Assembly: GCA_043814765.1 (NCBI GenBank)
Contig: JBDRJQ010000028.1
Location: 29,835 to 93,834, forward strand
From: Nanobdellota archaeon
GTDB taxonomy: Archaea > Aenigmatarchaeota > Aenigmatarchaeia > QMZP01
Direction of reading: 5' to 3'
DNA length: 64,000 nt
A model generated the notes under the pieces. It was given only the letters and a program-made list of their open reading frames with translations. It did not search any database and was not told the DNA's origin. Both the position numbers and the translations under genes were made by a program. Shown here piece by piece: positions 1 to 37,200 of the stretch (positions are counted from its first letter, which is position 1; every line of letters starts with the position of its first letter).

Positions 1-513
1 GCTGTCTCAACATTTGGCGTTTCAAAAGAGGTAATAGAAGAGTGGGGCAACATACTTGAAAGTAATAGTCTAATAGAAGTTCACTACCCCATAATAGGCG
101 AGCCAAGTTTGCAGGTTATAAGGGAAAAGAAAGAAAAATTAAAAAAAAGTGAAAAGAAAAAGGATGTCAAGATTAGGCTTCCAGAAAAAGCTCCCAAAGA
201 ATTAGAAAAACAAGAATCTATAAAACCAAAGAAAAAAAAATTCAATAAAAAAATTGGTGCAATTACAACTGCAATTATTGCCATATCTTTAGTTTTATTG
301 GCTCTATACTTTACGGGATACGGCACTTCATTATTCGAATCAATAAGTTACTTCATGAATATCTATTTGCCCCAGCTTGGAGAATATAGCATGCTTGCAA
401 AAACTTACCTACTTTTAATAGTAATCGTACCAATAATTATTATTATAACAGGGTTCTTAACCCTTAAAAAATACAACGTAAATATAAAATCTTTTCGATT
501 GGGTAGAAAATGA
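1..513 (+). CDS. hypothetical protein, 5'-truncated by window edge; Lys-rich linker followed by two predicted TM helices
   Basis: Frame 1 is open from position 1 with no stop and runs into ORF 109..513, which has no ATG and was called with a TTG start. Its stop overlaps the downstream ATPase start (ATGA). Confidence 0.4.
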   Translation, partial: AVSTFGVSKEVIEEWGNILESNSLIEVHYPIIGEPSLQVIREKKEKLKKSEKKKDVKIRLPEKAPKELEKQESIKPKKKKFNKKIGAITTAIIAISLVLLALYFTGYGTSLFESISYFMNIYLPQLGEYSMLAKTYLLLIVIVPIIIIITGFLTLKKYNVNIKSFRLGRK

Positions 514-2099
514 AAAGAACATTAGAAAAATACAGAATGGTAGTTGATGACATACCTGTTAACATTAGGATTTACGAAGACTCCGCCGAATTTGTTCCTA
601 TTTATGAAGTAACTTTTCCACAGCTAGAGGAAGCTACTACTGCTGCTCTTGAAAAGGTTAGAGAAAAACTGATAACAGAAATAATAATAGAGCCAAGTGA
701 AATTATAGATCCAAGAGAGTATAAGCAGCTAAGAGACAAATTCATAAAAAAAGCAGGCGAGTTGATAGAAAAGGAACTTCCAACAGTAGCGCCAAATGAG
801 AGAAAAATACTAATGGGAACGCTTCTGCATCATTCTCTGGGTTTAGGTTACATCGAAATGCTTCTTGACGATCAAAAACTCGAAGAAATTGTTATCAATA
901 GTTCTAAAGAACCGCTCTGGGTTTATCATATCAAACGTGGCTGGTTAAAAACCAATCTTTCTGTTGAATCAGAGGCGAAAATATACAACTACGCATCTTC
1001 CGTAGGAAGGAGAGTCGGTACGCAAATAACTAATCTTAATCCTTTAATGGATGCGTATCTTCCAAGCGGAGACAGGACCAATGCAACGCTTTTTCCAATA
1101 AGCTCTTCTGGTAACACAATGACTATTCGAAAGTTCGCCAGAAGACCATGGACTATTACAGATTTCATAGAGCTCAAAACAATAACATCAGAAGCAGCTG
1201 CTTTCCTATGGCTAGCTATTCAATACGAACTGAATATTCTTATCGCAGGTGGCACTGCATCTGGTAAGACGTCACTGCTTAACTCGCTTACATGCTTCAT
1301 ACCACCAAACCACAGAATTATTTCAATAGAGGACACAAGAGAGATACAGCTGCCAAAATACCTTCACTGGGTACCTCTCACAACAAGACCTCCTAATCCT
1401 GAAGGAAAAGGAGAGATAACAATGCTTAATTTGATGATAAACGCTCTGAGGATGAGGCCTGACAGAGTGATAGTAGGCGAGATGAGGAGAAGAAAGGAAG
1501 CTGAAGTTTTGTTCGAAGCTATACACACAGGCCATTCTGTGTACTCAACAGTGCACGCTAACACTGCTGAAGAAGCTTACAGACGTCTTGTTAATCCTCC
1601 TATAGGAATACCTCCAGCCATGTTAGGCGGTTTGCAGCTTATAGCTGTCATGCATAGAGACAGAAGAAAAAACATAAGAAGGGTGCTCCAGATATCCGAA
1701 TTATCCATGAGTGGTGAGGTTTCAGACACTAATATAGAGCTTAACACAGTTTTTCGCTGGGTCGCTTCTAATGATACTATTATGAAATTTGCAAAGTCTT
1801 ACAGAACCATGAATGATATAAAACTTTATACAGGCATGTCTGATACTGACATAAAAAATGATCTTGAAGATAAAAGATTCATTTTAAACTGGCTCGTTGA
1901 AAAACAGATAAAAGACATACATGAAGTTGGCAGAATTATTTCTGAATACTATATCAATCCAAGCAAGGTGCTGAAAAAAATTAAAAGCGGTGAAATGGAG
2001 TACAGCAAACAGGCTATTAAACCGCCACAACCAACAGAAAAACCAAAGATTAATTACCCATTAAAAGATAAAACAAAGCACATGACAGAACTTAAATAA
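510..2099 (+). CDS. type II/IV secretion-family ATPase, archaeal FlaI/PilB-like (type IV pilus/archaellum assembly)
   Basis: Walker A GGTASGKTSLLNSL, Walker B DRVIVGEMRR, His-box region HTGHSVYSTVHAN. Length of 529 aa is typical of FlaI/TadA-family ATPases. Confidence 0.8.
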   Translation: MKRTLEKYRMVVDDIPVNIRIYEDSAEFVPIYEVTFPQLEEATTAALEKVREKLITEIIIEPSEIIDPREYKQLRDKFIKKAGELIEKELPTVAPNERKILMGTLLHHSLGLGYIEMLLDDQKLEEIVINSSKEPLWVYHIKRGWLKTNLSVESEAKIYNYASSVGRRVGTQITNLNPLMDAYLPSGDRTNATLFPISSSGNTMTIRKFARRPWTITDFIELKTITSEAAAFLWLAIQYELNILIAGGTASGKTSLLNSLTCFIPPNHRIISIEDTREIQLPKYLHWVPLTTRPPNPEGKGEITMLNLMINALRMRPDRVIVGEMRRRKEAEVLFEAIHTGHSVYSTVHANTAEEAYRRLVNPPIGIPPAMLGGLQLIAVMHRDRRKNIRRVLQISELSMSGEVSDTNIELNTVFRWVASNDTIMKFAKSYRTMNDIKLYTGMSDTDIKNDLEDKRFILNWLVEKQIKDIHEVGRIISEYYINPSKVLKKIKSGEMEYSKQAIKPPQPTEKPKINYPLKDKTKHMTELK

Positions 2100-2158
2100 T
2101 AAACAGTTATAAAGCAACCATTTATTACAAGATAATAGAATATTTATAGAGTAATATT

Positions 2159-2443
2159 ATGGCCGAAGATCAACCAATTAGGGTAAGACTTCCTAGGGGC
2201 AAGGAAGTAATGGGATTTGTTGAGGAATTCTTAGGTGCAAGCAGATTTAAAGTTAGATGCAAAGACGGTCACACAAGAATGTGCAGGATACCTGGAAAGT
2301 TCAGGAAGCGCTTCAGAATGACTGTCGGTGATATTGTTATAATTGAACCGTGGGACGTCCAGCCAGAGGAAAAAGGAGATGTTGTATGGATATACAACAA
2401 GACACAAATGTTTTGGCTAAGAAAACATGGTCACGGGGAATAA
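2159..2443 (+). CDS. eif1a: translation initiation factor aIF-1A
   Basis: 94 aa with S1-like OB fold. VRLPRGKEVMGFVEEFLGASRFKVRCKDGHTRMCRIPGKFRKR...GDIVIIEPWD matches the eIF-1A family. Confidence 0.85.
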   Translation: MAEDQPIRVRLPRGKEVMGFVEEFLGASRFKVRCKDGHTRMCRIPGKFRKRFRMTVGDIVIIEPWDVQPEEKGDVVWIYNKTQMFWLRKHGHGE

Positions 2444-2480
2444 ACGGAGGACTGACAATTTAATATTGTCTTAATTTTTT

Positions 2481-2969
2481 ATGGCAGAAGTTGTTTTGAT
2501 TCCCAATGATAGAAGACCTATTTTAATAGGAAAAAACGGCTCTATTAAGAAAAGAATAGAGAAGCTGACTAATACAAAGATAACAGTAAGAGAAGATGTA
2601 GAGATAGAAGGAGATATTTTTGATGTTGCAAAGGCAAAGGATATAATCACTGCAATTGCGAGAGGATTCTCACCTGAACGCGCTTTTATTTTACTGAATG
2701 AAAATTTTGAGCTAAAAATTATCACATTAAAAGGCCAGACAGATAAGACAATAAAACGTTTGATGGCTCGTGTTATAGGCCGTAAAGGATCAACCAGAAG
2801 AATAATAGAGCTTGAAACCGGTGCAAAGATATCCATTTATGGCAAGACTGTTTCTATAATAGGCGAACTAAAAAAATTGGAAGCTGCTCAGGAAGCGGTT
2901 GAAGCCATCCTGGCAGGCAGAAAACACGGTACTGCCTACAAGAGAATGCTGAGAAAAGTTAAGGATTAA
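2481..2969 (+). CDS. KH-domain RNA-binding protein (Dim2/Pno1-like)
   Basis: Two KH-like GxxG motifs (IGKNGSIKKRIEKL; IGRKGSTRRIIELETG). Lies next to eIF-1A, as in the conserved archaeal eIF1A/KH neighbourhood. Confidence 0.65.
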   Translation: MAEVVLIPNDRRPILIGKNGSIKKRIEKLTNTKITVREDVEIEGDIFDVAKAKDIITAIARGFSPERAFILLNENFELKIITLKGQTDKTIKRLMARVIGRKGSTRRIIELETGAKISIYGKTVSIIGELKKLEAAQEAVEAILAGRKHGTAYKRMLRKVKD

Positions 2970-4060
2970 GCTCTTAGTGTTAATTCGCTTATAGATTCTT
3001 CCTTGTTTATTTTATCTATTGCTTTTGCTATAAGCGGTTCAACAGGAATCTCTTCAAGCCAGTCAAAAGTTTTTCCATGTCGAATAGCATTTGAAGCAAA
3101 TACTCCACTCAAGAAACCATCTTCATACAATTCTCCCAAAAGCTCTTCTGCCCTTCCGGTTAACTGTGCATATGTGCATAAACATTGCATGCTTCTTGCT
3201 CCTCTATCACGGCACTCCTTTCCTAATGCTACTATAGTTGATCCGCTGCCTATAATATCATCAACAGCAAGAACATCCCTGCCTTCAACATTTCCTATAA
3301 GCTCTATACTGTCAACTAAATTCTCTTCTTTATGCACACGTTCTTTGTCTCCTATAACAGTTGGCAATGACATTATAGGTTTACCTGGTTTTGGTTGACC
3401 GTATACTAATAAACCAAGACGTGCTGCATATGCTCTTGCTCTTCCAGCTCCTCCTGGATCTGGCGACAATAAAGAAGTGTTTTCAGTAACTAATTCAGGA
3501 TGATTATCTTTAATATAATCTACAGCTACTGGTCTAAAACTCAGGTCTTCAAAACCCATACCAGAATCTGCATAGCCTCGAATCTGTCTGGCATGAAGAC
3601 TCAAAGTCATTATATAGTTTGCTCCTGCTGTTTTCAAAAACTTAGGCACTAGAGAAGCTGTTATGCCTTCTCTCTGATGTTTTTCATCAGGACTCTGTAT
3701 CTTAAATTGAGCGTCTTGCCTTTGATAAGGAAATGGCAACACAACAGCAGTTATGCTTCCTGCTATTGCTCTTGATGCAGCATCAATTGCTGTAAGCATA
3801 TACATGAAGTTGTCATTAACAGTGTAGTATTCATTACCAGCAAATGATTTTACTCTTTTATTTTCAAGATTTTGAAAGCACTGAATGACATAAACATCTC
3901 TGCCTCTGACATTTTCACCTATTACGCATCGGCCTTCAGAATCTTCAAAATCCCTATCTTCTGCATCTATAAGATGTATTCCAAGCTCTCCTGCGACACC
4001 TTCTGCAAAATATCTTCCAGAATTGTTTGCTATTAAAGCAATTTCTCCTCTATATGACAT
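2966..4060 (-). CDS. prs: ribose-phosphate pyrophosphokinase (PRPP synthetase), longer than typical
   Basis: GRDVYVIQ, LSLHARQIRGY, SPDPGGAGRA and the PRPP-binding loop VDDIIGSGSTIVALGKECRDRGA. Confidence 0.6.
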   Translation of the reverse strand: MSYRGEIALIANNSGRYFAEGVAGELGIHLIDAEDRDFEDSEGRCVIGENVRGRDVYVIQCFQNLENKRVKSFAGNEYYTVNDNFMYMLTAIDAASRAIAGSITAVVLPFPYQRQDAQFKIQSPDEKHQREGITASLVPKFLKTAGANYIMTLSLHARQIRGYADSGMGFEDLSFRPVAVDYIKDNHPELVTENTSLLSPDPGGAGRARAYAARLGLLVYGQPKPGKPIMSLPTVIGDKERVHKEENLVDSIELIGNVEGRDVLAVDDIIGSGSTIVALGKECRDRGARSMQCLCTYAQLTGRAEELLGELYEDGFLSGVFASNAIRHGKTFDWLEEIPVEPLIAKAIDKINKEESISELTLRA

Positions 4061-4125
4061 ATCCAGATATTAGTGAACAAGCTTTTTATTGGTATTCAAT
4101 ACAGTGAATATTTAGAATATAGTAA

Positions 4126-4353
4126 CTATTCCTTTTTCTTATCCAATTCTGTGTAACCGCATTTGCCACAATAAGTCCTGTTCTTATGCTGTGATAACCA
4201 TGTTCCAGCTCCACATCGTGGACATGATCTCCTCTTTTTGTTAACAGATGATCCTTGCACTTCATAATAAGTGTTAGGTTTAAGTGATTCGTGTTTTCTG
4301 CCTTTTCTCTGCTTCTTGCCCTTTCTTACAGCTTTTTTTTGTTTTTTACCCAT
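4126..4353 (-). CDS. rps27ae: ribosomal protein S27ae (eS31), C4 zinc ribbon
   Basis: 75 aa, Lys-rich N-terminus, CPRCGAGTW...CGKCGYT zinc ribbon. Adjacent to S24e, as in the conserved archaeal rps24e-rps27ae pair. Confidence 0.8.
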   Translation of the reverse strand: MGKKQKKAVRKGKKQRKGRKHESLKPNTYYEVQGSSVNKKRRSCPRCGAGTWLSQHKNRTYCGKCGYTELDKKKE

Positions 4354-4447
4354 ATATCTAATTACCTGTCCACTCTATTAACATCACAAAGGCGACCATA
4401 TTCAAACAATATTAGCCGTCAACTATTATAACGCGCTATTAGCATTA

Positions 4448-4780
4448 TTAATGCTTTTTATCCTTCTTTTTTGTTTTTGGAGTACTTAAACTTTTCTCTC
4501 TCAGGCCTGCTTCCTTTACTTTTTCAATTGAATAGCCTTTCTTTTCTTCACTTATTTTCATTGGTTTTTTGAAAAAATAGTAAATAATAGCTCCCAGCAT
4601 CATAGCTGCATAGATTATTGCCCATATCACTAGGAAGGCAAATATCAATGCTAGAATCCCTATTGCAAACAAGAGTATGATAGGCCAGAAGAGAAAAAAT
4701 ATTACACCTGTTATCGCTAAAGCTATTATGCCAAACAAGAAAAGTCCTGTTAGTTTGAATATGTATTTTTTTTCTGGCAT
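4448..4780 (-). CDS. small membrane protein (2-3 TM helices)
   Basis: Hydrophobic 110-aa ORF. Start overlaps the stop of the upstream AIM24-like gene. Confidence 0.4.
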   Translation of the reverse strand: MPEKKYIFKLTGLFLFGIIALAITGVIFFLFWPIILLFAIGILALIFAFLVIWAIIYAAMMLGAIIYYFFKKPMKISEEKKGYSIEKVKEAGLREKSLSTPKTKKKDKKH

Positions 4781-5520
4781 TATCTTCTGCCTCCCATCAT
4801 TGAACCGATTATAGCGCCTGCAGCGACTCCTCCGGCTGCACCGCCTGTTTTTGGCAAGTATTCTGCCAATTTACCTGCTAGCTCATTAACTGGCATGCTC
4901 TGAACCCATACGCGCCCAGGACCTGTTATAGTGGCAAGGAATAATCCTTCTCCTCCCCATATTATGTTTTTAACGCCTTTTACGCGCTCTACATCATAAT
5001 CCATGCCTTCATCAAACATGGCCAAATTGCCTGTGTCAACCCTTATTTTTTGTCCAGCTTTTAGCTTCATCTCTGTAACTTCTCCGCCAACATTAAAGAA
5101 GACTTGTCCAGGACCTTTTATTTTAACCAATATAAGCCCCTCTCCACCGAGTAACCCAGCTCCTATTCTCTTTGTGAATGTCGCATCAAAAGTAACGCTT
5201 TCCTCTGAACATAAGAAGGCATCCTTTTGGGCTATTATGGTTTCACCATTCTTCATTTTCATTGGTATTATTTTACCAGGAAACTCAGTGCCAAATCCCA
5301 TTGTGCCAGGACCTGCTTGCGGTGTGAAATGAACAAGAAAGAAAGACTCTCCTGCAAACTTTCTTTTCAGGCCTGCGAAAAGTCCGCCTTTGGCTTTGGT
5401 CTCCATTTTAACATTATCTGACATATAGACGAGTCTTCCAGACTCAGAAACAATAGTTTCATTTTGTGCAAGTTCCACATTCAGCATCTGCATTGTGGTG
5501 CCCTGCAAATCGTATTTCAT
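4780..5520 (-). CDS. AIM24/TIGR00266-family (DUF124) protein
   Basis: Length and the Gly-rich beta-strand pattern (GESFFLVHFT...GFGTEFPGKIIPM...GEGLFLATITGPGRVWVQ) are typical of the AIM24 family. Confidence 0.5.
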   Translation of the reverse strand: MKYDLQGTTMQMLNVELAQNETIVSESGRLVYMSDNVKMETKAKGGLFAGLKRKFAGESFFLVHFTPQAGPGTMGFGTEFPGKIIPMKMKNGETIIAQKDAFLCSEESVTFDATFTKRIGAGLLGGEGLILVKIKGPGQVFFNVGGEVTEMKLKAGQKIRVDTGNLAMFDEGMDYDVERVKGVKNIIWGGEGLFLATITGPGRVWVQSMPVNELAGKLAEYLPKTGGAAGGVAAGAIIGSMMGGRR

Positions 5521-7319: not shown

Positions 7320-7934
7320 TTATTTATCCCCTAACTTTCTTTCAGATTTTCGTCCGCTCTTCATTCTTACTGTTTTTTCTTCATGAACTGTTTTTCTGTC
7401 CTTCCAATCAATTCCTCCAAGTCCCTGTTGCCTTGTTGTTAAACCAATCTTGTATTCCTTTCCTGTACTGGAAACTGATATGATTCTGGCTGTTACAGAA
7501 TCCCCTTCTTTTAGTATGTTGTGTGTGTCTCTTCCGATAAAAACAGCTTTTTTTGGATCATATGAAACAAAATCATCCATTAGTTGTGATACGTGTATCA
7601 TGCCGTCAAGAGGTCCTATTCTGACAAAAACACCGAATTCTGTTACATCTATTACAAAACCCTTTACTATTTCATGCATGTCTGGTTCGTAAGACAGTAA
7701 CCTGAAATCCACTGGATAGTGTATTGCTCCGTCTCCTGCTAGTATCTTTCCTTCACCAACCTCTTTTATTGATACTATGGATAATGCTACGCCAATATCC
7801 TTTTCTATTGTGCCTTCCCACTTGTCTTCAAGGCTGCTCTTTACAGCGTTTTCTAAACCAAGGCTAAACTTTACAGGCGGTACCCTGACTTTGTCCTTTA
7901 TAGTTAATATCTTGTACATACAATAAAACCTCAT
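7320..7934 (-). CDS. rpoE: DNA-directed RNA polymerase subunit E' (Rpo7/RpoE) with S1 domain
   Basis: N-terminal Rpb7-like domain plus S1 domain (GFVIDVTEFGVFVRIGPLDGMIHVSQL). rpoE-spt4 gene order. Confidence 0.75.
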   Translation of the reverse strand: MRFYCMYKILTIKDKVRVPPVKFSLGLENAVKSSLEDKWEGTIEKDIGVALSIVSIKEVGEGKILAGDGAIHYPVDFRLLSYEPDMHEIVKGFVIDVTEFGVFVRIGPLDGMIHVSQLMDDFVSYDPKKAVFIGRDTHNILKEGDSVTARIISVSSTGKEYKIGLTTRQQGLGGIDWKDRKTVHEEKTVRMKSGRKSERKLGDK

Positions 7935-15084: not shown

Positions 15085-17295
15085 ATGGCCAGATATAGTT
15101 CACAAGAGCTTTGGAAACAGTGGCAAAAAGCAGTTGGTGGAGCATTATTAGCCCTTGCAGTGATGATTGTTTTCAATCACTTTTTGATGGCGTTAATAGT
15201 GTTTACCTTCCTGTTCTTTATACCTGACCAGGATGAGGGCGCAGAGTTCATGAAGAACACTGTTATTTTTGTAATTTTAATGGTAATTATATGGTTCTTT
15301 GCGTTCTTTGTGGGCGCACAATACGGAGGATTCCAGCTGGATATAGCAGAAGCAGGCGAGTCTGCTAATCCTTTGCTTCCGTGGACATGGACTGACACGT
15401 CTGCAATAATGTTCTTTGTATTCTGGTTATTTGCAGGCATTGTGGGAGCATTCGGTGATCCGGAATCCAGACAGATAGTAGGCATATTCTTCATAATGAT
15501 GAGTTTCTTTGTGTTTGCCAGCAGTGTGGGCGCAGAGAATGTCGGTTCAGCGTTCTTTGGTCAGTGGTGGCCACAGGTTCATGGTGTAATAATGGATGTA
15601 TCCGGACCTCTGGAAGAATCGTTCAGCACATTATTTGGTACAATGCAGCAGATGTTTAAGCTAGTTTCAGATCCTGCCGGGTTCGCGCGTGATATGATAG
15701 AAGGTAACTATGCCGGCAATGATTATGGTCAGACCGGTTCTTACGGTGTTGAAATAAGCTTTGGAGCTCTCGATAAGCTTTTCCTTGGCCAGCCAGCATT
15801 CCTGGATATAACATTAAAAAATGAAGGCTCCTTCATAGCTGAAAACGTTGGCATAGGAATATCAATACCCAAAGAATATACGAATCAAATAACAAGCTCT
15901 CCATCTCTTGGTGAAATTGATAGAGACTACTTCAATCTTGTAGACTATTATGGATTCACTGAAAGTAATAATCCAGGAACAGAAAAATTAGAAATTGCAG
16001 AAGGTTCAGGTGTTTTTGATTGGAATGGCTTGTGGTGGTACAACCCAGGAGAAGTGATACTTTACAGGAATATTGGAGAAATGAAACACCAGGATGTTGT
16101 CAACCAGCCATTTAACGGAGAAATCAACTGTAATCCTATAGATAAATTCAACCTCAGAGAGAAATCGACGCCAATAAAGGCAACAGTTGCATATGATTAC
16201 AAGGTTTTCTCAAACCTTAACATTGAATTTATTAGCGTGGATGAGTGGGACAGAAGAGTGAGAGACAATGTTCTTGTACAGACCAAGATACCTTCAACTA
16301 TTACAAGTGCTCCTATAAAACTTTCAATAAACACAAACAGCCAGCCTGTAAGACCTGATCAGATTTTCTATGTGGGTCTTGAGCTAAAGACAGAAGAGAC
16401 CAACTCTGTCATTGATGATGCTGTAATAAAAATGACTTTCCCAGATGAATTCGGAGCCTCTACTGCCAGGTGCACTGGTGTAGGCGATTACGAGTTTAAC
16501 AGCAATGAACTTATTTGGATGCCAACAAACATAGGAGCTGCACAATCTAAACCAATAGGAAAAGAGCCTGTAACGATAATCTGTACATTTTACGATGCTG
16601 ATGAGAACGCAATACTAGGAACTTCACCAACAAACACATATAACCTAAAGGCAGAAGGAACATACAGATTCTATAAATGGATAACAAGAGTGCCAAAACT
16701 TACAATGGGGGACTTCTGCTGCAAAAATGAGGACTGCTCTTCTGACGGTACAGAAATTTGCAGTAATAGTGCTAGTTATCCTCAACCAGGCTTCTGCGTG
16801 CCAGGAGATCCAAATAGTGCTAATGTTGATAATCCAATACCAGGAGCATGCGGTAACGGCATTATAAATTCTGGTGAAGACTGCGAAAGCGGACAAAACT
16901 TTCAAAATGTTTGTCCGAATGCAGGAGGATGGTTTGATAAAAGCGACCCAACAGGTGCTACAGGACATCCGATAGATACAGATATCATAAAGTTTAAATG
17001 CAATCTTAACGGACCTATAGGCGATATTAAAGCATGTGGATGTTATCACGAACCTTCTGATATTCCTGTTGCAACTGACACTAATGTATGCGGAAATGGG
17101 ATTGTTGATGCAGGAGAAGAATGTGACGGCGGTCCATTAGCTGATTTTACTTCTAATGATAATTGGGTATGGAATGGTTGGGATACAGTAAAAGCAGATA
17201 ATGGTTGTGGTATTCTACAATACTGTAAAATACCAATTGCAGGTGATTACAGTATTGGTAATGATAATTCTGGTTGTAAATGTATTGATTTTTAA
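15085..17295 (+). CDS. polytopic membrane protein with large extracellular domain ending in Cys-rich CGNG...E-x-CD-GG repeats (Myxococcus cysteine-rich-repeat-like)
   Basis: N-terminal ~6 TM helices, then a beta-rich domain. C-terminus has CGNGIINSGEDCESG and CGNGIVDAGEECDGG. Confidence 0.45.
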   Translation: MARYSSQELWKQWQKAVGGALLALAVMIVFNHFLMALIVFTFLFFIPDQDEGAEFMKNTVIFVILMVIIWFFAFFVGAQYGGFQLDIAEAGESANPLLPWTWTDTSAIMFFVFWLFAGIVGAFGDPESRQIVGIFFIMMSFFVFASSVGAENVGSAFFGQWWPQVHGVIMDVSGPLEESFSTLFGTMQQMFKLVSDPAGFARDMIEGNYAGNDYGQTGSYGVEISFGALDKLFLGQPAFLDITLKNEGSFIAENVGIGISIPKEYTNQITSSPSLGEIDRDYFNLVDYYGFTESNNPGTEKLEIAEGSGVFDWNGLWWYNPGEVILYRNIGEMKHQDVVNQPFNGEINCNPIDKFNLREKSTPIKATVAYDYKVFSNLNIEFISVDEWDRRVRDNVLVQTKIPSTITSAPIKLSINTNSQPVRPDQIFYVGLELKTEETNSVIDDAVIKMTFPDEFGASTARCTGVGDYEFNSNELIWMPTNIGAAQSKPIGKEPVTIICTFYDADENAILGTSPTNTYNLKAEGTYRFYKWITRVPKLTMGDFCCKNEDCSSDGTEICSNSASYPQPGFCVPGDPNSANVDNPIPGACGNGIINSGEDCESGQNFQNVCPNAGGWFDKSDPTGATGHPIDTDIIKFKCNLNGPIGDIKACGCYHEPSDIPVATDTNVCGNGIVDAGEECDGGPLADFTSNDNWVWNGWDTVKADNGCGILQYCKIPIAGDYSIGNDNSGCKCIDF

Positions 17296-32391: not shown

Positions 32392-32718
32392 TTAGATTGA
32401 TTTTTTATTTATTGAGTTCTTATTTAAATGCTTGACTAGGTTTTTATAGAAATCTATAGCCTCACTAAGCATTTTTTCACCCTTTTCAGTAATATGGTAT
32501 ATTTTCTTTCTGCCATATTCTTCTTTTCTAACAAGACCTGATTTCCCTAAAAGATACAAAACTTTATAGGCAGTCATAGTACCTGGCTTGAATCCGAATC
32601 TTTTTTCTATTTCTTTGCGCAGAGTGTATGCGTGTGACGGTTCATCTTTAAGTATATGCAATATATATATCCACAAACATTCCCTAGTATTCAGTAACTT
32701 AAGACGTCTAAGAGGCAT
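32392..32718 (-). CDS. PadR-family transcriptional regulator
   Basis: 108 aa winged helix with LWIYILHILKDEPSHAYTLRKEIEKRFGFKPGTMTAYKVLYLLGKSGLV. Confidence 0.7.
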   Translation of the reverse strand: MPLRRLKLLNTRECLWIYILHILKDEPSHAYTLRKEIEKRFGFKPGTMTAYKVLYLLGKSGLVRKEEYGRKKIYHITEKGEKMLSEAIDFYKNLVKHLNKNSINKKSI

Positions 32719-32752
32719 ATTATCTAATTCCTTGATTATCTTTGTCTATTAG

Positions 32753-32786
32753 TTCAAAGACGACTAAAGTCGTCAAACTATATAAT
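32753..32786 (-). promoter_or_regulatory. TATA box ATTATATAG plus palindromic operator TTTGACGAC-TTTA-GTCGTCTTTGAA immediately upstream of the PadR gene
   Basis: Perfect inverted repeat GACGAC/GTCGTC, spacer 4, abutting the TATA element, ~35-65 nt upstream of the PadR ATG (minus strand). Confidence 0.55.
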
Positions 32787-32805
32787 ATTTTACATTTGTA
32801 TAATA

Positions 32806-32910
32806 TAACCTTTACAAAACAATGTCTTTCGTAGTGTCTTGCGTTCGGTTTTGAACGCAGAAAAACAAAACCTTTATATATACATTGTTACTAGGTAATA
32901 GTAACATAGC
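32806..32910 (+). promoter_or_regulatory. promoter block X: TGTCTTTCGTA + GTGTCTTGCGT motifs, TATA (CCTTTATATATA), TAATAGTAACA at predicted TSS; followed by a ~180-nt leader
   Basis: Same motif order recurs at 37080..37200 (block Y). Confidence 0.45.
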
Positions 32911-33086
32911 TCTTTTGAACGGTAAAAGGTTCGCTGAGTTATCTTACACACGGAAAAAAAACTAGTTATTGGGTCTTAATGATCTGATAGCTTTCAACCA
33001 TAATTGGTACACTGGAACTATTTTTCAGCCTTAGGGCTCAATAATGAACGTGTGAATAAAACAAAAAAAATAAGGAGAAAACAGAA

Positions 33087-33839
33087 ATGAAGCTGTTAAA
33101 AACTACTGCCGTTCTTCTGTCGATTTTCTTTGTTCTCTGCATGGCCACTGTTTGCTATGCTGGCCCAGAAAACGGCAACGGCGCAGTTGACATTCTGACA
33201 AAGTCAGATTTGACTGATCTTCATAACACCATAATTATTGGAATTGTGGTGTTCGCATTAATCATGGTTGCGGTTATTCTTATTTTAATGTTTAGACCGC
33301 GACAAACACTTCCAGCAGTTGTTGAACTGGAACCGGAACCTGATAATCCTGAACCCAGCCCTGATTGGATGAGGTCCGGAGCAAAAAGAATAGCCAAAGA
33401 AGCGGTAGCTGGCATCGAAGAGGATCTCTCGATTGATATTGCCGGTGAATTGACAGATTTGGTAATAGGAGCAAGAACTGCTTCTGAAAACGCACGAAGA
33501 GAATTCATGCGTGTTTTCCGTCAAAGATTGAACGGTGGCAGCGATATCGATGCTCTTATAGATGAAGCCATCCGGCTAAGAGTGCGAGAACGGGGAGCTG
33601 AGCTTCCTCCGGAAGTTCTGGAACATGCAACAGATCCAACAGTTACTCAGGAAGAAGTGGATGCTCTTAACGCTGCTGTTAACACTGAAATGGCTCCGGA
33701 CCCGATTCTGACATTACTTGAGCGATTAGTGGATGGTCAGGCTGCTGCAACAGAAGCTATTCGAAATTTGACAGCTGCTGTAACACCTCCCCCTGACGAA
33801 ACATCGCATGCTCCAGACAGTAGCGGCGATGCAGGTTAA
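33087..33839 (+). CDS. secreted/membrane-anchored acidic protein (signal peptide, one TM, Pro/Glu-rich)
   Basis: N-terminal signal MKLLKTTAVLLSIFFVLCMATVCYA, TM IIIGIVVFALIMVAVILILMF. Higher GC than neighbours. AAGGAGA ribosome-binding site. Confidence 0.5.
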   Translation: MKLLKTTAVLLSIFFVLCMATVCYAGPENGNGAVDILTKSDLTDLHNTIIIGIVVFALIMVAVILILMFRPRQTLPAVVELEPEPDNPEPSPDWMRSGAKRIAKEAVAGIEEDLSIDIAGELTDLVIGARTASENARREFMRVFRQRLNGGSDIDALIDEAIRLRVRERGAELPPEVLEHATDPTVTQEEVDALNAAVNTEMAPDPILTLLERLVDGQAAATEAIRNLTAAVTPPPDETSHAPDSSGDAG

Positions 33840-33925
33840 CCCCCAACTGCCCAATAAACATGGGAGGAGAGTCTGTTCAATCAGGCCTCCTCCCAAAAAT
33901 CTCTGAACATTAAACAAGGAGGATT

Positions 33926-34405
33926 ATGATGAGAATCCTAAACATAATCTCATCTTTTTTTATTGCTTTCTGGGGACTGGTTAAGGGATTCTTCACCATT
34001 CTCCTGAAGTGCATTTGGATAGCAATCAAGTGGTTTTTCATAGCCCTTTGGAAACTGCTTAATTGGATCTGGAATAAAATCATTCTTGTCCAGAATTGGT
34101 TCAAAAGGACCAAACTTGGACGGGATTTGCGAAGAGGAAAGCGATGGCCGCGCATCACAGTGATGAGCCTAATGCTTTTCATTCTTTTTTCCGTCTTATG
34201 TTTTTCACTTCTTTTCTCCGGTCATAAAATGACTGGATTAATAATATCATTGTTTATTCTTTTTGGTCTTGTGCCTTTCTTTGGCACATGGGCCAGAAAT
34301 ATGTATCAAGCAGAGAATGCCGAACCAAAAAAGCGGCACTCAATGATTGACCATATTCCCTGGCCGTGGCTGAAAAATCATCCCTGGCGCAGAATTACAG
34401 CATAG
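33926..34405 (+). CDS. Trp-rich polytopic membrane protein
   Basis: 4 TM segments. AGGAGG ribosome-binding site 6 nt upstream. GC-rich island. Confidence 0.45.
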   Translation: MMRILNIISSFFIAFWGLVKGFFTILLKCIWIAIKWFFIALWKLLNWIWNKIILVQNWFKRTKLGRDLRRGKRWPRITVMSLMLFILFSVLCFSLLFSGHKMTGLIISLFILFGLVPFFGTWARNMYQAENAEPKKRHSMIDHIPWPWLKNHPWRRITA

Positions 34406-34459
34406 ATATCCTGATGAGGATGATTCCTGGGTGGAAAAAAAGGAAGAGAGGAGATCATC

Positions 34460-34795
34460 ATGGATGCAATTACCATCTCGGTTGGGCATCTGACATGCCT
34501 GCTATATCTCGCTTATATGGTGGGTTGGGTGCTAACCGAATTTGTCGCATATGCGACAAAAAACTTGAAGAGAAGAGGGGTAATCGTTCTGTTCTTGATT
34601 ATCCTGCTGTGCACCGCTGTTCTGTTGCATAATTTCAACAAATGGGATGCATATGGATCGTTTTTCATGGCGACTCTGTTTGTCTTCCCTCCGGCCGCTT
34701 TGGTGTTGCTTTCTCGAGAGGTAAGAGGAGGCAACAAATCAATTAGGGAGAGGATGAGAATCTTTGGTGGTGGCACTAAAGGAGATTCATCATGA
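34460..34795 (+). CDS. membrane protein (3 TM)
   Basis: GAGAGGAGA ribosome-binding site upstream. Overlaps the next gene by 4 nt (ATGA). Confidence 0.45.
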   Translation: MDAITISVGHLTCLLYLAYMVGWVLTEFVAYATKNLKRRGVIVLFLIILLCTAVLLHNFNKWDAYGSFFMATLFVFPPAALVLLSREVRGGNKSIRERMRIFGGGTKGDSS

Positions 34796-35091
34796 ACAAT
34801 TTTAATTTTATTATCGGAATCCTGGTAATCTCGACGCTTCTTTGTCTGGTTTTTGCTGTATGGAATTATCTGAAGCTCAAACGTTATCAGAACACTTATG
34901 TTTGGGCAAGTGGCAAAACTCAGAAAGGTGAGGACTTTCTCATTCTTTCAATTGAGGGTAAAGATGAGGATGCCACTCAGTATGAGTGCCATCGAGATGA
35001 AGAGGGCAAGATAACAATTATCGGACCTGCTGGTGAAAACCTTAAAGGCATTCAACACACGTTCGGTAACGGATATCGTCCTCGGATTTAG
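34792..35091 (+). CDS. small N-terminally anchored protein
   Basis: One TM then soluble domain. Translationally coupled to the upstream gene. Confidence 0.4.
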   Translation: MNNFNFIIGILVISTLLCLVFAVWNYLKLKRYQNTYVWASGKTQKGEDFLILSIEGKDEDATQYECHRDEEGKITIIGPAGENLKGIQHTFGNGYRPRI

Positions 35092-35176
35092 TTCAGGTAG
35101 AGGATGAGACCTCGTGGAACTTTAGGGTTTGATGGTGAGATACGATCAAAAATCCAAAGACCTAAGGAGGTCAACA

Positions 35177-35764
35177 ATGCAGATCGATTTGAATTACGTA
35201 GTAAACGCCATTCTGACCAACCTGGCATATGCAGTTGCGCTTGGGCTGGTTATGTGGGGAATTTGCAGGCTTCTGATAAAAGAACCTGAGGGCAATTACT
35301 GGGCACCAAGGGTCATGATGGTAATATTCCTGATCTCTGCGCTTGTCTTCACATTTTCTGTTGGAAGAATAACATTCCCAGCAGTTGACAATGCTGTAGA
35401 AAACATTTTCTCAGGTGTTTCAACATCGATAGCAAGTGCAACACCACATCCTGTGGTAAACATTCAGGTTGACACACCTCCTCCTACTGTAGTAATACAG
35501 AAGGAGACGAGTCAGCCAGTGGTCCGCGAAAGCGAACCGGTTCCAGAAACAACAGAAGGGGATACCTCAAATGAGAAATTTTCTGTAGACGGTCAGTTTG
35601 AAGATGGTACACCATACCATCTTTACACGATTGTCAGGGGCAATACCATATACAGCTTGTCCCGCAGATTTGGTGTCACCCAGGATGAACTTATGAGGCG
35701 GAACGATCTTAGGATTGGAACGCCTCTCCGTATCGGGAGGGATCTCAGGATTCCTATCAAATGA
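35177..35764 (+). CDS. membrane-anchored LysM-domain protein
   Basis: C-terminal LysM: YTIVRGNTIYSLSRRFGVTQDELMRRNDLRIGTPLRIGRDLRIP. Start placed at ATG 35177 with AAGGAGG 7 nt upstream; the ORF-track start 35129 is the alternative. Confidence 0.55.
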   Translation: MQIDLNYVVNAILTNLAYAVALGLVMWGICRLLIKEPEGNYWAPRVMMVIFLISALVFTFSVGRITFPAVDNAVENIFSGVSTSIASATPHPVVNIQVDTPPPTVVIQKETSQPVVRESEPVPETTEGDTSNEKFSVDGQFEDGTPYHLYTIVRGNTIYSLSRRFGVTQDELMRRNDLRIGTPLRIGRDLRIPIK

Positions 35765-35903
35765 AGCACAAACAATTGAATAGGTAACTTGGGAGGGGAG
35801 AAAAATCCTCCCTTTCCCTTTTCATATGTCTATCTATAGGGATATATAAATATATTTTACACTAGTAAAGTATTTAAATTTGCAAATACAATTATTTTAC
35901 AGG

Positions 35904-35935
35904 TATAAAATAGTTGACGACTTTATGTCGTCTTT
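35904..35935 (+). promoter_or_regulatory. TATA box TATAAAAT plus palindromic operator TTGACGAC-TTTAT-GTCGTCTTT immediately upstream of the inositol-phosphate synthase gene
   Basis: Near-identical to the PadR-gene operator (32753..32786) but inverted. Overlaps the predicted TSS, 13 nt before the ATG. Confidence 0.5.
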
Positions 35936-35947
35936 AGATATCAGGTG

Positions 35948-37054
35948 ATGTTTTTGAAGGAAATTAAAGTTGCTATCGCAGGAATTGGGAACTGTTGCAG
36001 TTCTCTTATACAGGGAATTCATTATTATAAGAATGTTGACTCAAATGGAGAAAGCATTCCTGGGCTGATGAACAATGTTATTGGGGGTTATAAGATAAGC
36101 GACATAAAACCTGTAGCTGCTTTTGATATTGATATTAGAAAGGTTGGCAGAGATCTGTCTGAAGCTATATTCGCTGAACCAAACTGTACTATAATATTCC
36201 ATAAGGATGTTCCTCATCAGGATGTTGAAGTAAAGATGGCTCCTGTTCTTGATGGTGTAGCTCCTCATATGAAGGAGTTTCCAGACCATCAAACATTCAA
36301 GATTTCTAATGAAAAACCAGTAGATGTAACAAAGGTTCTTAAAGAAAGCGGAGCAGAGATGCTCATCAACTACCTTCCTGTAGGTTCTGAGGACGCTGTA
36401 AGGTATTATGCTCAGGCTGCTTTAGATGCAGGATGTGCTTTTGTTAATTGTATGCCTGTTTTCATTGCGTCCACTGATGAGTGGGCAAAGAAGTTCGAGG
36501 ATAAAGGGCTTCCTATAGTCGGTGATGACATCAAGGCACAGATAGGTGCAACTATAACTCATAGAACACTCGTAAAGTTATTTTCTGATAGAGGTGTAAA
36601 GATAGAAAGAACATATCAGCTTAATACCGGTGGAAACACCGACTTCCTTAACATGATAGAGCGCTCAAGACTCAAAAGCAAGAAGATAAGCAAAACTTCT
36701 TCTGTGCAATCACAGCTACCAACTCCTTTGCATCCTGATAACATACACATAGGACCAAGTGATTATATCCCATGGCAGAAAGACAACAAGATATGTTTCT
36801 TGAGGATAGAAGGAAGGAAGTTTGGAAACGTTCCTACCCATATAGAAGCTCGTCTTTCAGTAGAAGATTCACCCAACAGCGCAGGATGCGTAATAGACGC
36901 AGTGCGCTGCGCAAAGCTAGCATTGGATCGTGGCGTAGGAGGAAGGCTGCTGTCAATTTCAGCATACACAATGAAGCATCCGCCAACACAATATCCTGAT
37001 ACTTTGGCAAAGCAGATGGTTGAAGAGTTCATCAAAGGGGAAAGGGAACGTTAA
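35948..37054 (+). CDS. myo-inositol-1-phosphate (inositol-3-phosphate) synthase
   Basis: N-terminal Rossmann KVAIAGIGNCCSSL. GDDIKAQIGATITHRTLVKLFSDRGVKIERTYQLNTGGNTDFLN resembles the MIPS catalytic region (GxDxKxGxT...NxxGN/D). Start at ATG 35948; GTG 35945 is the alternative. Confidence 0.6.
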   Translation: MFLKEIKVAIAGIGNCCSSLIQGIHYYKNVDSNGESIPGLMNNVIGGYKISDIKPVAAFDIDIRKVGRDLSEAIFAEPNCTIIFHKDVPHQDVEVKMAPVLDGVAPHMKEFPDHQTFKISNEKPVDVTKVLKESGAEMLINYLPVGSEDAVRYYAQAALDAGCAFVNCMPVFIASTDEWAKKFEDKGLPIVGDDIKAQIGATITHRTLVKLFSDRGVKIERTYQLNTGGNTDFLNMIERSRLKSKKISKTSSVQSQLPTPLHPDNIHIGPSDYIPWQKDNKICFLRIEGRKFGNVPTHIEARLSVEDSPNSAGCVIDAVRCAKLALDRGVGGRLLSISAYTMKHPPTQYPDTLAKQMVEEFIKGERER

Positions 37055-37079: not shown

Positions 37080-37200
37080 TTTATTGTCTTGCGCAAGACA
37101 AGATTTGTCTTTCGTAATGAAAACAGCACAAATCGAGCTCAAAAAGTGTCTTGCGTACCGATAGCTTTATAAAGCCTTTGTCACTATTTAATAGTAACAA
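37080..37200 (+). promoter_or_regulatory. promoter block Y: palindrome TTGTCTTGCGCAAGACAA, TGTCTTTCGTA, GTGTCTTGCGT, TATA (GCTTTATAAAG), TAATAGTAACA
   Basis: Homologous to block X (32806..32910) with insertions. Lies 36 nt upstream of the ATG of the first gene of the HerA-like operon. Confidence 0.45.

Follow-up and report, generated by a model that had tools for sequence, protein, structure and literature searches.

The 64 kb of DPANN archaeal DNA analysed in the current study (the window) carries two copies of a palindrome with GACGAC and GTCGTC arms, one upstream of a gene for a PadR-family regulator and the other upstream of a gene for myo-inositol-1-phosphate synthase (MIPS). A preliminary description of the sequence had proposed a two-promoter regulon in which PadR acts on both genes through this palindrome. 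The regulon itself is upheld, in that the two genes are conserved neighbours (22 loci) and have a palindrome in both promoters, but it would not operate via the GACGAC element. On balance we favour, with some reserve, a composite explanation: the PadR–MIPS pair would be under the control of a different palindrome, of the TATTTTAC type, and the GACGAC element would be a 5'-leader stem-loop that has been copied from the PadR gene to the MIPS gene.

The two genes, which were compared with their counterparts in related loci (labelled L001, L002 etc.), are:

32392..32718, minus strand: PadR subfamily-2 regulator gene, 108 aa (PF03551 at 48.6 bits, structural model, Foldseek)
35945/35954..37054, plus strand: MIPS gene (PF01658, 5e-35)

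A homologue of PadR adjoins MIPS in 22 related loci, mostly in divergent orientation and 70–180 bp apart, and the closest relatives also keep the gene order PadR-L7Ae-S28e-L24e-diphthine synthase-GTPase. MIPS is 64–78% identical to 80 loci, the nearest of which belong to metagenome-assembled genomes of Aenigmatarchaeota, Nanoarchaeota and other DPANN archaea; in the nearest relative, L084, PadR is 82% and MIPS 79% identical to the window. Comparison with the N-termini of relatives indicates that MIPS probably starts at the TTG at nt 35954, which is preceded by a Shine-Dalgarno-like AGGTGA (nt 35942–35947).

The PadR protein passes the PF03551 cut-off (48.6 vs 27 bits, E = 8e-13, profile positions 1–74 of 75), and an identical protein entry at NCBI carries the annotation 'PadR family transcriptional regulator [Nanoarchaeota archaeon]'. 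Its AlphaFold model (pLDDT 81) is a winged helix-turn-helix (helices 2–12, 15–25, 30–41 and 50–59, wing 63–76) followed by one long C-terminal helix (78–106). The top Foldseek matches of this model are LmrR, TA0346, Rv3488 and a Brachyspira PadR, with TM-scores of 0.64–0.77, and a profile search of solved structures agrees with the assignment to the small PadR proteins. Members of subfamily 2 consist of a single 11–13 kDa domain in which a winged helix-turn-helix is joined to one C-terminal dimerisation helix (PMC5728393), and the 108-aa window protein has this architecture in the model. PadR proteins bind palindromes as dimers, and the DNA contacts of B. subtilis PadR include Tyr20, Tyr42 and a basic wing residue, Lys67 (PMC5728393). 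Across an alignment of the PadR proteins of this clade, Y18, Y51 and Y55 are invariant and R70 is nearly so; the model places these residues in helix 1, in the recognition helix and in the wing. Neither the recognition helix (KPGTMTAYKVLYLL) nor the wing differs in the closest relatives, down to about 65% overall identity, so that the DNA specificity of these PadR proteins should be the same.

The palindrome that accompanies this pair of genes is TATTTTACA-NN-TGTAAAATA. It is shared by the intergenic regions of the related loci, with a copy in 18 of the 22 PadR-linked ones, and often a TATTTAAATA box has a copy on either side, so that each gene is faced by one of them. Sites were scored over the 14 positions of the pattern ATTTTAC-N4-GTAAAAT, with a threshold of at least 12/14 in related loci and at least 13/14 in the window. 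A site within 160 nt upstream of MIPS is present in 18/22 loci with an adjacent PadR gene, compared with 5/63 loci without one, and in the 1.19 Mb of related loci as a whole, 32 of the 42 ATTTTAC-type sites fall within that distance upstream of MIPS. Loci L088–L090 have a further such site in the gap between MIPS and a HAD-PadR unit. The symmetrised consensus of 46 sites reads T-A-T-T-T-T-A-C-a-n-n-t-G-T-A-A-A-A-T-A. In the window four sites were found where 0.16 are expected, and three of them are in the PadR and MIPS promoters (nt 32787–32804 on the PadR side, nt 35854–35871 and 35894–35911 on the MIPS side). The fourth, at nt 17212, has a 6-nt spacer, lies inside an open reading frame (ORF) of 736 aa and is taken as chance. 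With the likely MIPS TATA box, the promoter elements are:

32786..32805, no strand: palC (TATTTTACATTTGTATAATA), 13/14, proposed PadR operator over the PadR TATA box
35853..35872, no strand: palA (TATTTTACACTAGTAAAGTA), 13/14, position kept in L084, L003, L001 and L006
35871..35879, plus strand: TATTTAAAT, likely MIPS TATA box, central between palA and palB as in relatives, presumed to be the one in use
35893..35912, no strand: palB (TATTTTACAGGTATAAAATA), 13/14, proposed PadR operator between MIPS TATA box and start

The choice of TATA box is based on an alignment of MIPS upstream regions from five lineages (A3: window, L084, L003, L001 and L006), together with the intergenic regions of L004, L012, L014 and L033. 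Many columns of palB are invariant across the five lineages, and palC is kept ahead of the PadR orthologues in L086, L085, L115 and L116. The two motifs that had been described as TATA boxes, TATATAG and GGTATAAAATAG, turn out to be the outer ends of this palindrome (TATTTTAC-N4-GTAAAATA, nt 32786–32805 and 35893–35912), the supposed MIPS TATA box being the right half of palB. The same palindrome is found with PadR and MIPS in contigs labelled Paceibacterota (L044, nt 2927–5049, and L015). Locus L044 is clearly bacterial, since it encodes a type IV pilin motif and an elongation factor P that includes the C-terminal domain, and there the palindrome sits between TTGACA and TAAAAT, where in a bacterium a repressor site would be expected and a basal archaeal promoter element would not. 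TATTTTACA-NN-TGTAAAATA is present in the promoters of both the regulator and its neighbour above chance, as an operator should be. We infer that PadR binds the TATTTTAC palindromes, and a PadR–MIPS regulon acting through palindromes of the palA/palB/palC type is well supported by the comparison of genomes.

The GACGAC palindrome is a separate, real feature of the window. A search for GACGAC-N3..6-GTCGTC gave two matches, compared with 0.00 in 100 dinucleotide-preserving shuffles, and widening the spacer to 2–30 nt added none; the two copies are not due to chance. Their repetition upstream of PadR and MIPS is therefore as the preliminary description had it, with exactly two copies in 64 kb and no further one. 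So is their inverted placement around a GC-rich island, as the sites bracket a stretch of 44–51% G+C in a background of about 30–38%. The copies, and the leader in which the first of them lies, are:

32719..32779, minus strand: inferred PadR 5' leader, about 60 nt, with hairpin and AATTAGATAAT box (alignment A2, below)
32756..32776, minus strand: GACGAC hairpin element, copy 1, AAAGACGACTAAAGTCGTCAA on the plus strand and TTGACGACTTTAGTCGTCTTT on the minus strand, in the inferred PadR 5' leader
35914..35935, plus strand: GACGAC hairpin element, copy 2, TTGACGACTTTATGTCGTCTTT, in the MIPS leader, within an insertion of about 31 nt confined to the window

Once one copy is reverse-complemented, the two also have asymmetric parts in common, namely TAGTT(T) ahead of the palindrome, TTTA(T) at its centre and TTT after it. 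As these parts are in inverted orientation, each copy has the same polarity relative to its own downstream gene. A metagenome scan for the exact palindrome gave five single matches, all in unrelated contexts and none near PadR or MIPS, and a scan of viral contigs gave 17 matches, all unrelated. The element is accordingly not a widespread repeat.

The origin of the element can be followed in the upstream regions of six orthologous PadR genes (alignment A2: window, L114, L085, L086, L115 and L116). In L115 and L116 the PadR ATG comes directly after palC, 29 nt after the first T of TTATATTATA, and L086 has 8 extra nt. The centre of an archaeal TATA box lies some 26 nt ahead of the transcription start, and this spacing indicates that the PadR mRNAs of L115 and L116 are leaderless, with the left half of palC as the TATA box; the PadR start in the window was placed from the TATA-to-start spacing of these two loci only. 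The window, L114 and L085 have an insertion of 60–75 nt that begins exactly where the ATG lies in L115 and L116. It consists of the hairpin, a poorly conserved stretch and a conserved AATTAGATAAT box before the ATG, and the GACGAC element is absent from the PadR leaders of L086, L115 and L116. On the MIPS side, palA, the TATA box and palB are conserved in A3 and are followed, only in the window, by the insertion of about 31 nt, which contains the hairpin, then TTAGATAT, then the Shine-Dalgarno-like AGGTGA. The element is absent from the MIPS leaders of L084, L003, L001 and L006, and no GACGAC..GTCGTC was found near MIPS or PadR in L001–L091. In L084, palB leads straight to the MIPS ATG, so the MIPS copy of the hairpin is recent. 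From its sequence, the MIPS insertion appears to have been copied from the PadR leader in shortened form, hairpin and TTAGATA(A)T box included.

Four hairpins can be compared:

Window PadR leader: arms GACGACT/AGTCGTC, spacer 2 nt
L114 PadR leader: arms GACGACT/AGTCGTC, spacer 9 nt
L085 PadR leader: arms GATGACT/AGTCATC, spacer 16 nt
Window MIPS leader copy: 6-nt arms, spacer 5 nt

All of the stem cells pair (24/24), and one pair is altered on both sides, a compensatory change. In RNA folding the PadR stem-loop reaches -8.2 kcal/mol (z-score -2.5) and the MIPS stem-loop -9.2 kcal/mol (z-score -3.4), a value equalled by none of 200 shuffles of the latter. With the TATA boxes inferred from relatives, the hairpins would begin about 5 nt (PadR) and about 14 nt (MIPS) into the transcripts. 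Conserved arms, free loop length and a position close to the start fit a hairpin in the transcript or in DNA, and do not fit a dimer site of fixed geometry. Neither of two properties of an operator, conservation alongside the same DNA-reading residues and a fixed spacing of half-sites, is seen in the GACGAC element.

Other roles for the hairpin were considered. A terminator or attenuator, for which a G+C-rich stem should be followed on the transcribed strand by at least five T, was rejected, as neither hairpin is listed on the sense strand and the three nucleotides behind the stem read TTT (window), TTC (L114) and CTC (L085). A K-turn bound by L7Ae, the gene for which adjoins PadR, was likewise rejected: a GA after a 3-nt bulge is present only in the PadR copy of the window and, by inspection, absent from the MIPS copy, L114 and L085. 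An Rfam scan of the whole window gave no match at the gathering score of any family, and a sigma-70 promoter scan is uninformative for an archaeon.

If the GACGAC palindrome were the PadR operator, lying between TATA box and start and serving both autoregulation and repression of MIPS, the non-chance copies with the same polarity ahead of a regulator and a plausible target would be accounted for, and so would the AT-rich, TATA-like stretch before each copy, at a distance that puts the start just behind the palindrome; PadR proteins do bind palindromes dimerically (PMC5728393). However, the half-site TTGACGAC is unlike the ATTTTAC palindrome that is conserved with the PadR clade. No related locus has GACGAC upstream of MIPS, including the nearest relative with its unchanged recognition helix, and three orthologous PadR promoters are without it although the helix is identical. 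The arms are 2, 9 or 16 nt apart among orthologous leaders, and in L085 a start set by a TATA box immediately before the hairpin would fall within the hairpin itself. The GACGAC palindrome is thus probably not the PadR operator, and autoregulation through it is a quite improbable account of the two copies. It is improbable, too, that the sites belong to another DNA-binding protein, specific to the lineage, by which PadR and MIPS are regulated together, e.g. as a roadblock just past the start. Such a protein would suit the perfect arms kept in three lineages with a symmetric compensatory change, and the promoter-proximal position at both genes. Against it, spacers of 2, 5 (with 6-nt arms), 9 and 16 nt shift the half-sites out of helical phase, the 64 kb hold no candidate regulator and no further site, and the site is missing from the MIPS promoter of the nearest relative.

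There is an outside but real chance that the MIPS hairpin is a functionless by-product, hairpin and leader having been copied from PadR to MIPS by gene conversion or template switching primed by palC and palB. The copy abuts palB much as the original lies near palC, the similarity spans the operator end, the hairpin and the TTAGATA(A)T box, and the element is of recent origin and restricted to a single lineage. In the PadR leader, however, the arms stay paired while the loop and the rest diverge, which suggests selection on pairing there. Neutral copying is plausible for the MIPS copy and less so for the PadR copy, because the arms of the latter are kept in three lineages. The preliminary description had also offered the inverted sites as the ends of an inserted element. 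On this view a 3.1-kb element carrying the island, either inserted or invertible, would end in the two copies as its terminal inverted repeats or recombination sites. The inverted copies that bracket the island speak for it, but we reject it as most unlikely. Comparison with relatives places palC, palA, palB and the TATA elements, which are ancestral to the PadR–MIPS pair in genomes without any island, between the two sites; since the sites are on the gene side of these promoters, each flanking gene would have its native promoter inside such an element. Where relatives have another cassette in the gap, a single hairpin is present (L082) or none at all (L086). Pfam and PHROG searches of the island ORFs revealed no domain of a transposase, integrase or invertase, and there was no sign of a target duplication. 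A tRNA gene search of the window found none, hence there is no tRNA-type integration site, and other copies are lacking in the window and represented elsewhere only by the unrelated metagenome and viral singles.

Several points weigh against the composite explanation. Covariation in the hairpin is thin, with four sequences and one compensatory pair, and 116 of 500 shuffles do as well; a symmetric DNA site would, moreover, show the same compensatory change. The transcription starts of PadR and MIPS are predicted from promoter spacing, and if TATATAG and TATAAAATAG were the TATA boxes in use, the hairpins would lie between TATA box and start, the classic position for an archaeal repressor. The binding of PadR to the TATTTTAC palindrome is likewise a conclusion drawn by comparison, and within the genome the search for further copies covered 64 kb only. 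Behind the stem, L114 and L085 do not keep the U-run, which makes a terminator role unlikely, and a function at the RNA level is a proposal.

According to the composite explanation, a small PadR subfamily-2 repressor and MIPS would form an old divergent pair controlled by the 20-bp TATTTTACA-NN-TGTAAAATA site. PadR bound at palC would occlude its own TATA box, and bound at palB it would occlude the MIPS stretch between TATA box and start, with palA on the far side of that TATA box; a ligand would release it. In the lineage of the window a variable cassette, the G+C-rich island, would have split the PadR–MIPS intergenic region. The hairpin element may have arisen in the PadR leader of a sub-lineage, in which a leaderless mRNA became a leadered one, and in the window lineage it would then have been copied to the MIPS leader together with the TTAGATA(A)T box, in the same polarity to the gene. 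The GACGAC elements would thus sit just past the operators, in the stretch that runs from the predicted transcription start to the start codon, where they most likely act as a 5'-proximal RNA stem-loop on both PadR-controlled transcripts, affecting stability or translation. Alternatively, the stem-loop may have little function.

The island that now separates the two genes, and the elements at its ends, are as follows:

32823..32909, plus strand: cassette promoter module, not part of the PadR sites (TATA box at 32872–32881, GTTACTA-N5-TAGTAAC at 32887–32905)
33087..35764, plus strand: five-ORF island of higher G+C content, encoding membrane-type orphan proteins, inserted in the PadR–MIPS intergenic region
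35791..35822, plus strand: terminator-like hairpin and T-run closing the island operon

The island ORFs have strong Shine-Dalgarno sequences and predicted membrane segments. No homologue of their products was found in any related locus, the first matches only itself among 5.8 billion proteins, and a PHROG search gave no match except for the LysM part of an endolysin family. The last ORF has a C-terminal LysM domain (PF01476, 2.7e-10); as a surface protein of an episymbiotic archaeon it might attach to a host wall. The contents of the gap differ between lineages: where the window has its five orphan ORFs, L081–L084 have two different ones, L087 an MFS transporter and L088 a HAD hydrolase, from which it follows that the island is one filling of a variable slot in an old divergent pair.

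The cassette promoter module ahead of the island is kept in L082, L086 and L091. A second copy, in direct orientation, is present in the window at nt 37106–37199, so that both copies stand ahead of orphan-gene cassettes flanking MIPS; they are 80% identical over a 35-nt core and 93% over a 14-nt block. The module has the form TGTCTTTCGTA .. GTGTCTTGCG .. CTTTATA(T/A)A .. TTGT(T/C)ACTA-N5-TAGTAACA, and its GTTACTA-N5-TAGTAAC follows immediately on the TATA box, a place in which one would look for a repressor site. Behind the promoter, about 75 nt of non-coding DNA are conserved in four lineages despite unrelated downstream genes (window nt 32870–32960; L082 nt 7790–7880, minus strand; L086 nt 190–275, minus strand; L091). 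This stretch holds a CTTTT-N7-AAAAG hairpin and the motif ACTGGGYTATC, has no Rfam match and could be a small RNA or a leader shared by the genes of the variable slot. Short hairpins, GTCTTGCG..CGCAAGAC or GTCTTGCGTTC..GAACGCA, recur near the cassette promoters (window nt 32822–32870 and 37085–37160), and in L086 they are at another position (nt 150–190, minus strand).

Two further observations concern the flanking genes themselves. The window PadR has a 9-residue C-terminal extension (NKNSINKKSI, nt 32392–32430) that is absent from every relative and overlaps a TTTAAATA box ahead of the L7Ae gene, the gap between PadR and L7Ae being only 19 nt. In L087 (nt 2008–4515) the MIPS gene is split by an intein that carries a LAGLIDADG endonuclease domain.

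To our knowledge, hardly any relationships between a transcription factor, its operator and its target have been described for DPANN archaea or for bacteria of the candidate phyla radiation (CPR), organisms with small genomes that are mostly uncultured. The present example is concrete and testable, comprising a small PadR protein as repressor, a well-defined site of 20 bp and, as target, an enzyme that opens the way to inositol lipids or solutes, and it is conserved across many lineages and apparently across two domains. The corrected site matters, as the claim of a GACGAC operator would have pointed experiments at the wrong DNA. Because the same module occurs in the bacterial contig L044, transfer of the whole PadR-operator-MIPS cassette between DPANN archaea and CPR bacteria is suggested. 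A broader proposal, that PadR, operator and MIPS form a cassette shared by these archaea and bacteria, the PadR leader (stem-loop and TTAGATAAT box) having been copied onto MIPS in one archaeal lineage, is tentative and, taken as a whole, rather doubtful. If true, the same operator would serve within the archaeal type of promoter, with TATA box and start site, and in the -35/-10 interval of a bacterial one, with an RNA-level layer common to both mRNAs. The copied hairpin would also be a modest example of a regulator's untranslated leader possibly passed to its target gene. A literature search found no paper on a PadR–MIPS pair, which is not proof that none exists.

Stem-loops at the 5' end are known to stabilise bacterial mRNAs, the leader of ompA being an example. 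The hairpins described here are likewise short and stable, and would begin within a few nt of the predicted 5' end in the PadR mRNA and 14 nt in from it in the MIPS mRNA; a comparable role in archaeal mRNA decay is conceivable. For the regulator, the obvious comparison is LmrR of Lactococcus lactis, an autoregulated member of PadR subfamily 2 that controls the adjacent lmrCD operon. Both are single-domain winged-helix proteins of about 100 aa with a C-terminal dimerisation helix, the gene adjoins the presumed target in each case, and a palindromic site is present in the regulator's own promoter and in that of the target. Unlike LmrR, the window PadR has MIPS as its target and not an efflux pump or detoxifying enzyme, and its host is a DPANN archaeon with TATA-type promoters. 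Bacterial PadR sites are of the ATGT-N8-ACAT type, from which TATTTTACA-NN-TGTAAAATA appears to differ.

The relatives give some indication of what the target does. A gene for a CDP-alcohol phosphatidyltransferase, likely an inositol-phospholipid synthase, directly follows MIPS in L002, L008, L012–L014, L022, L023 and L088, and since MIPS is often followed by this gene, the pathway of the clade is suggested to feed an inositol lipid head group; no such gene is present in the window, nor near MIPS in L082. Functionally, the nearest case is Phr of Pyrococcus furiosus, a heat-shock repressor that, like the PadR described here, is tied to MIPS. Its own gene is likewise under its repression, and its binding sites lie close to where transcription starts. 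Phr is a negative regulator that binds a palindrome (PMC10746257), and the regulon of Phr (PF1790) includes the MIPS gene PF1616 (bioRxiv 10.1101/2025.05.02.651969). The two differ in that Phr serves heat-induced synthesis of compatible solutes, whereas the MIPS of this clade points to a lipid head group. The entry 2p4w, which we take to be the solved structure of Phr, is not among the 13 matches of the single-sequence search with PadR, nor among the 60 matches listed of 98 in the profile search. A dedicated regulator of the MIPS gene ino1 and of inositol-derived lipids is reportedly also found in Corynebacterium and Mycobacterium, namely IpsA, a LacI-type protein said to be an activator that responds to inositol. 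It shares the target enzyme with the present system, but comes from another protein family and from another domain of life. Set beside these examples, the PadR–MIPS pair is an ordinary type of system, in which a repressor would act through a palindromic operator on a divergently placed target; it is found in unusual organisms and carries a small, probably young leader hairpin that would have been copied from regulator to target.

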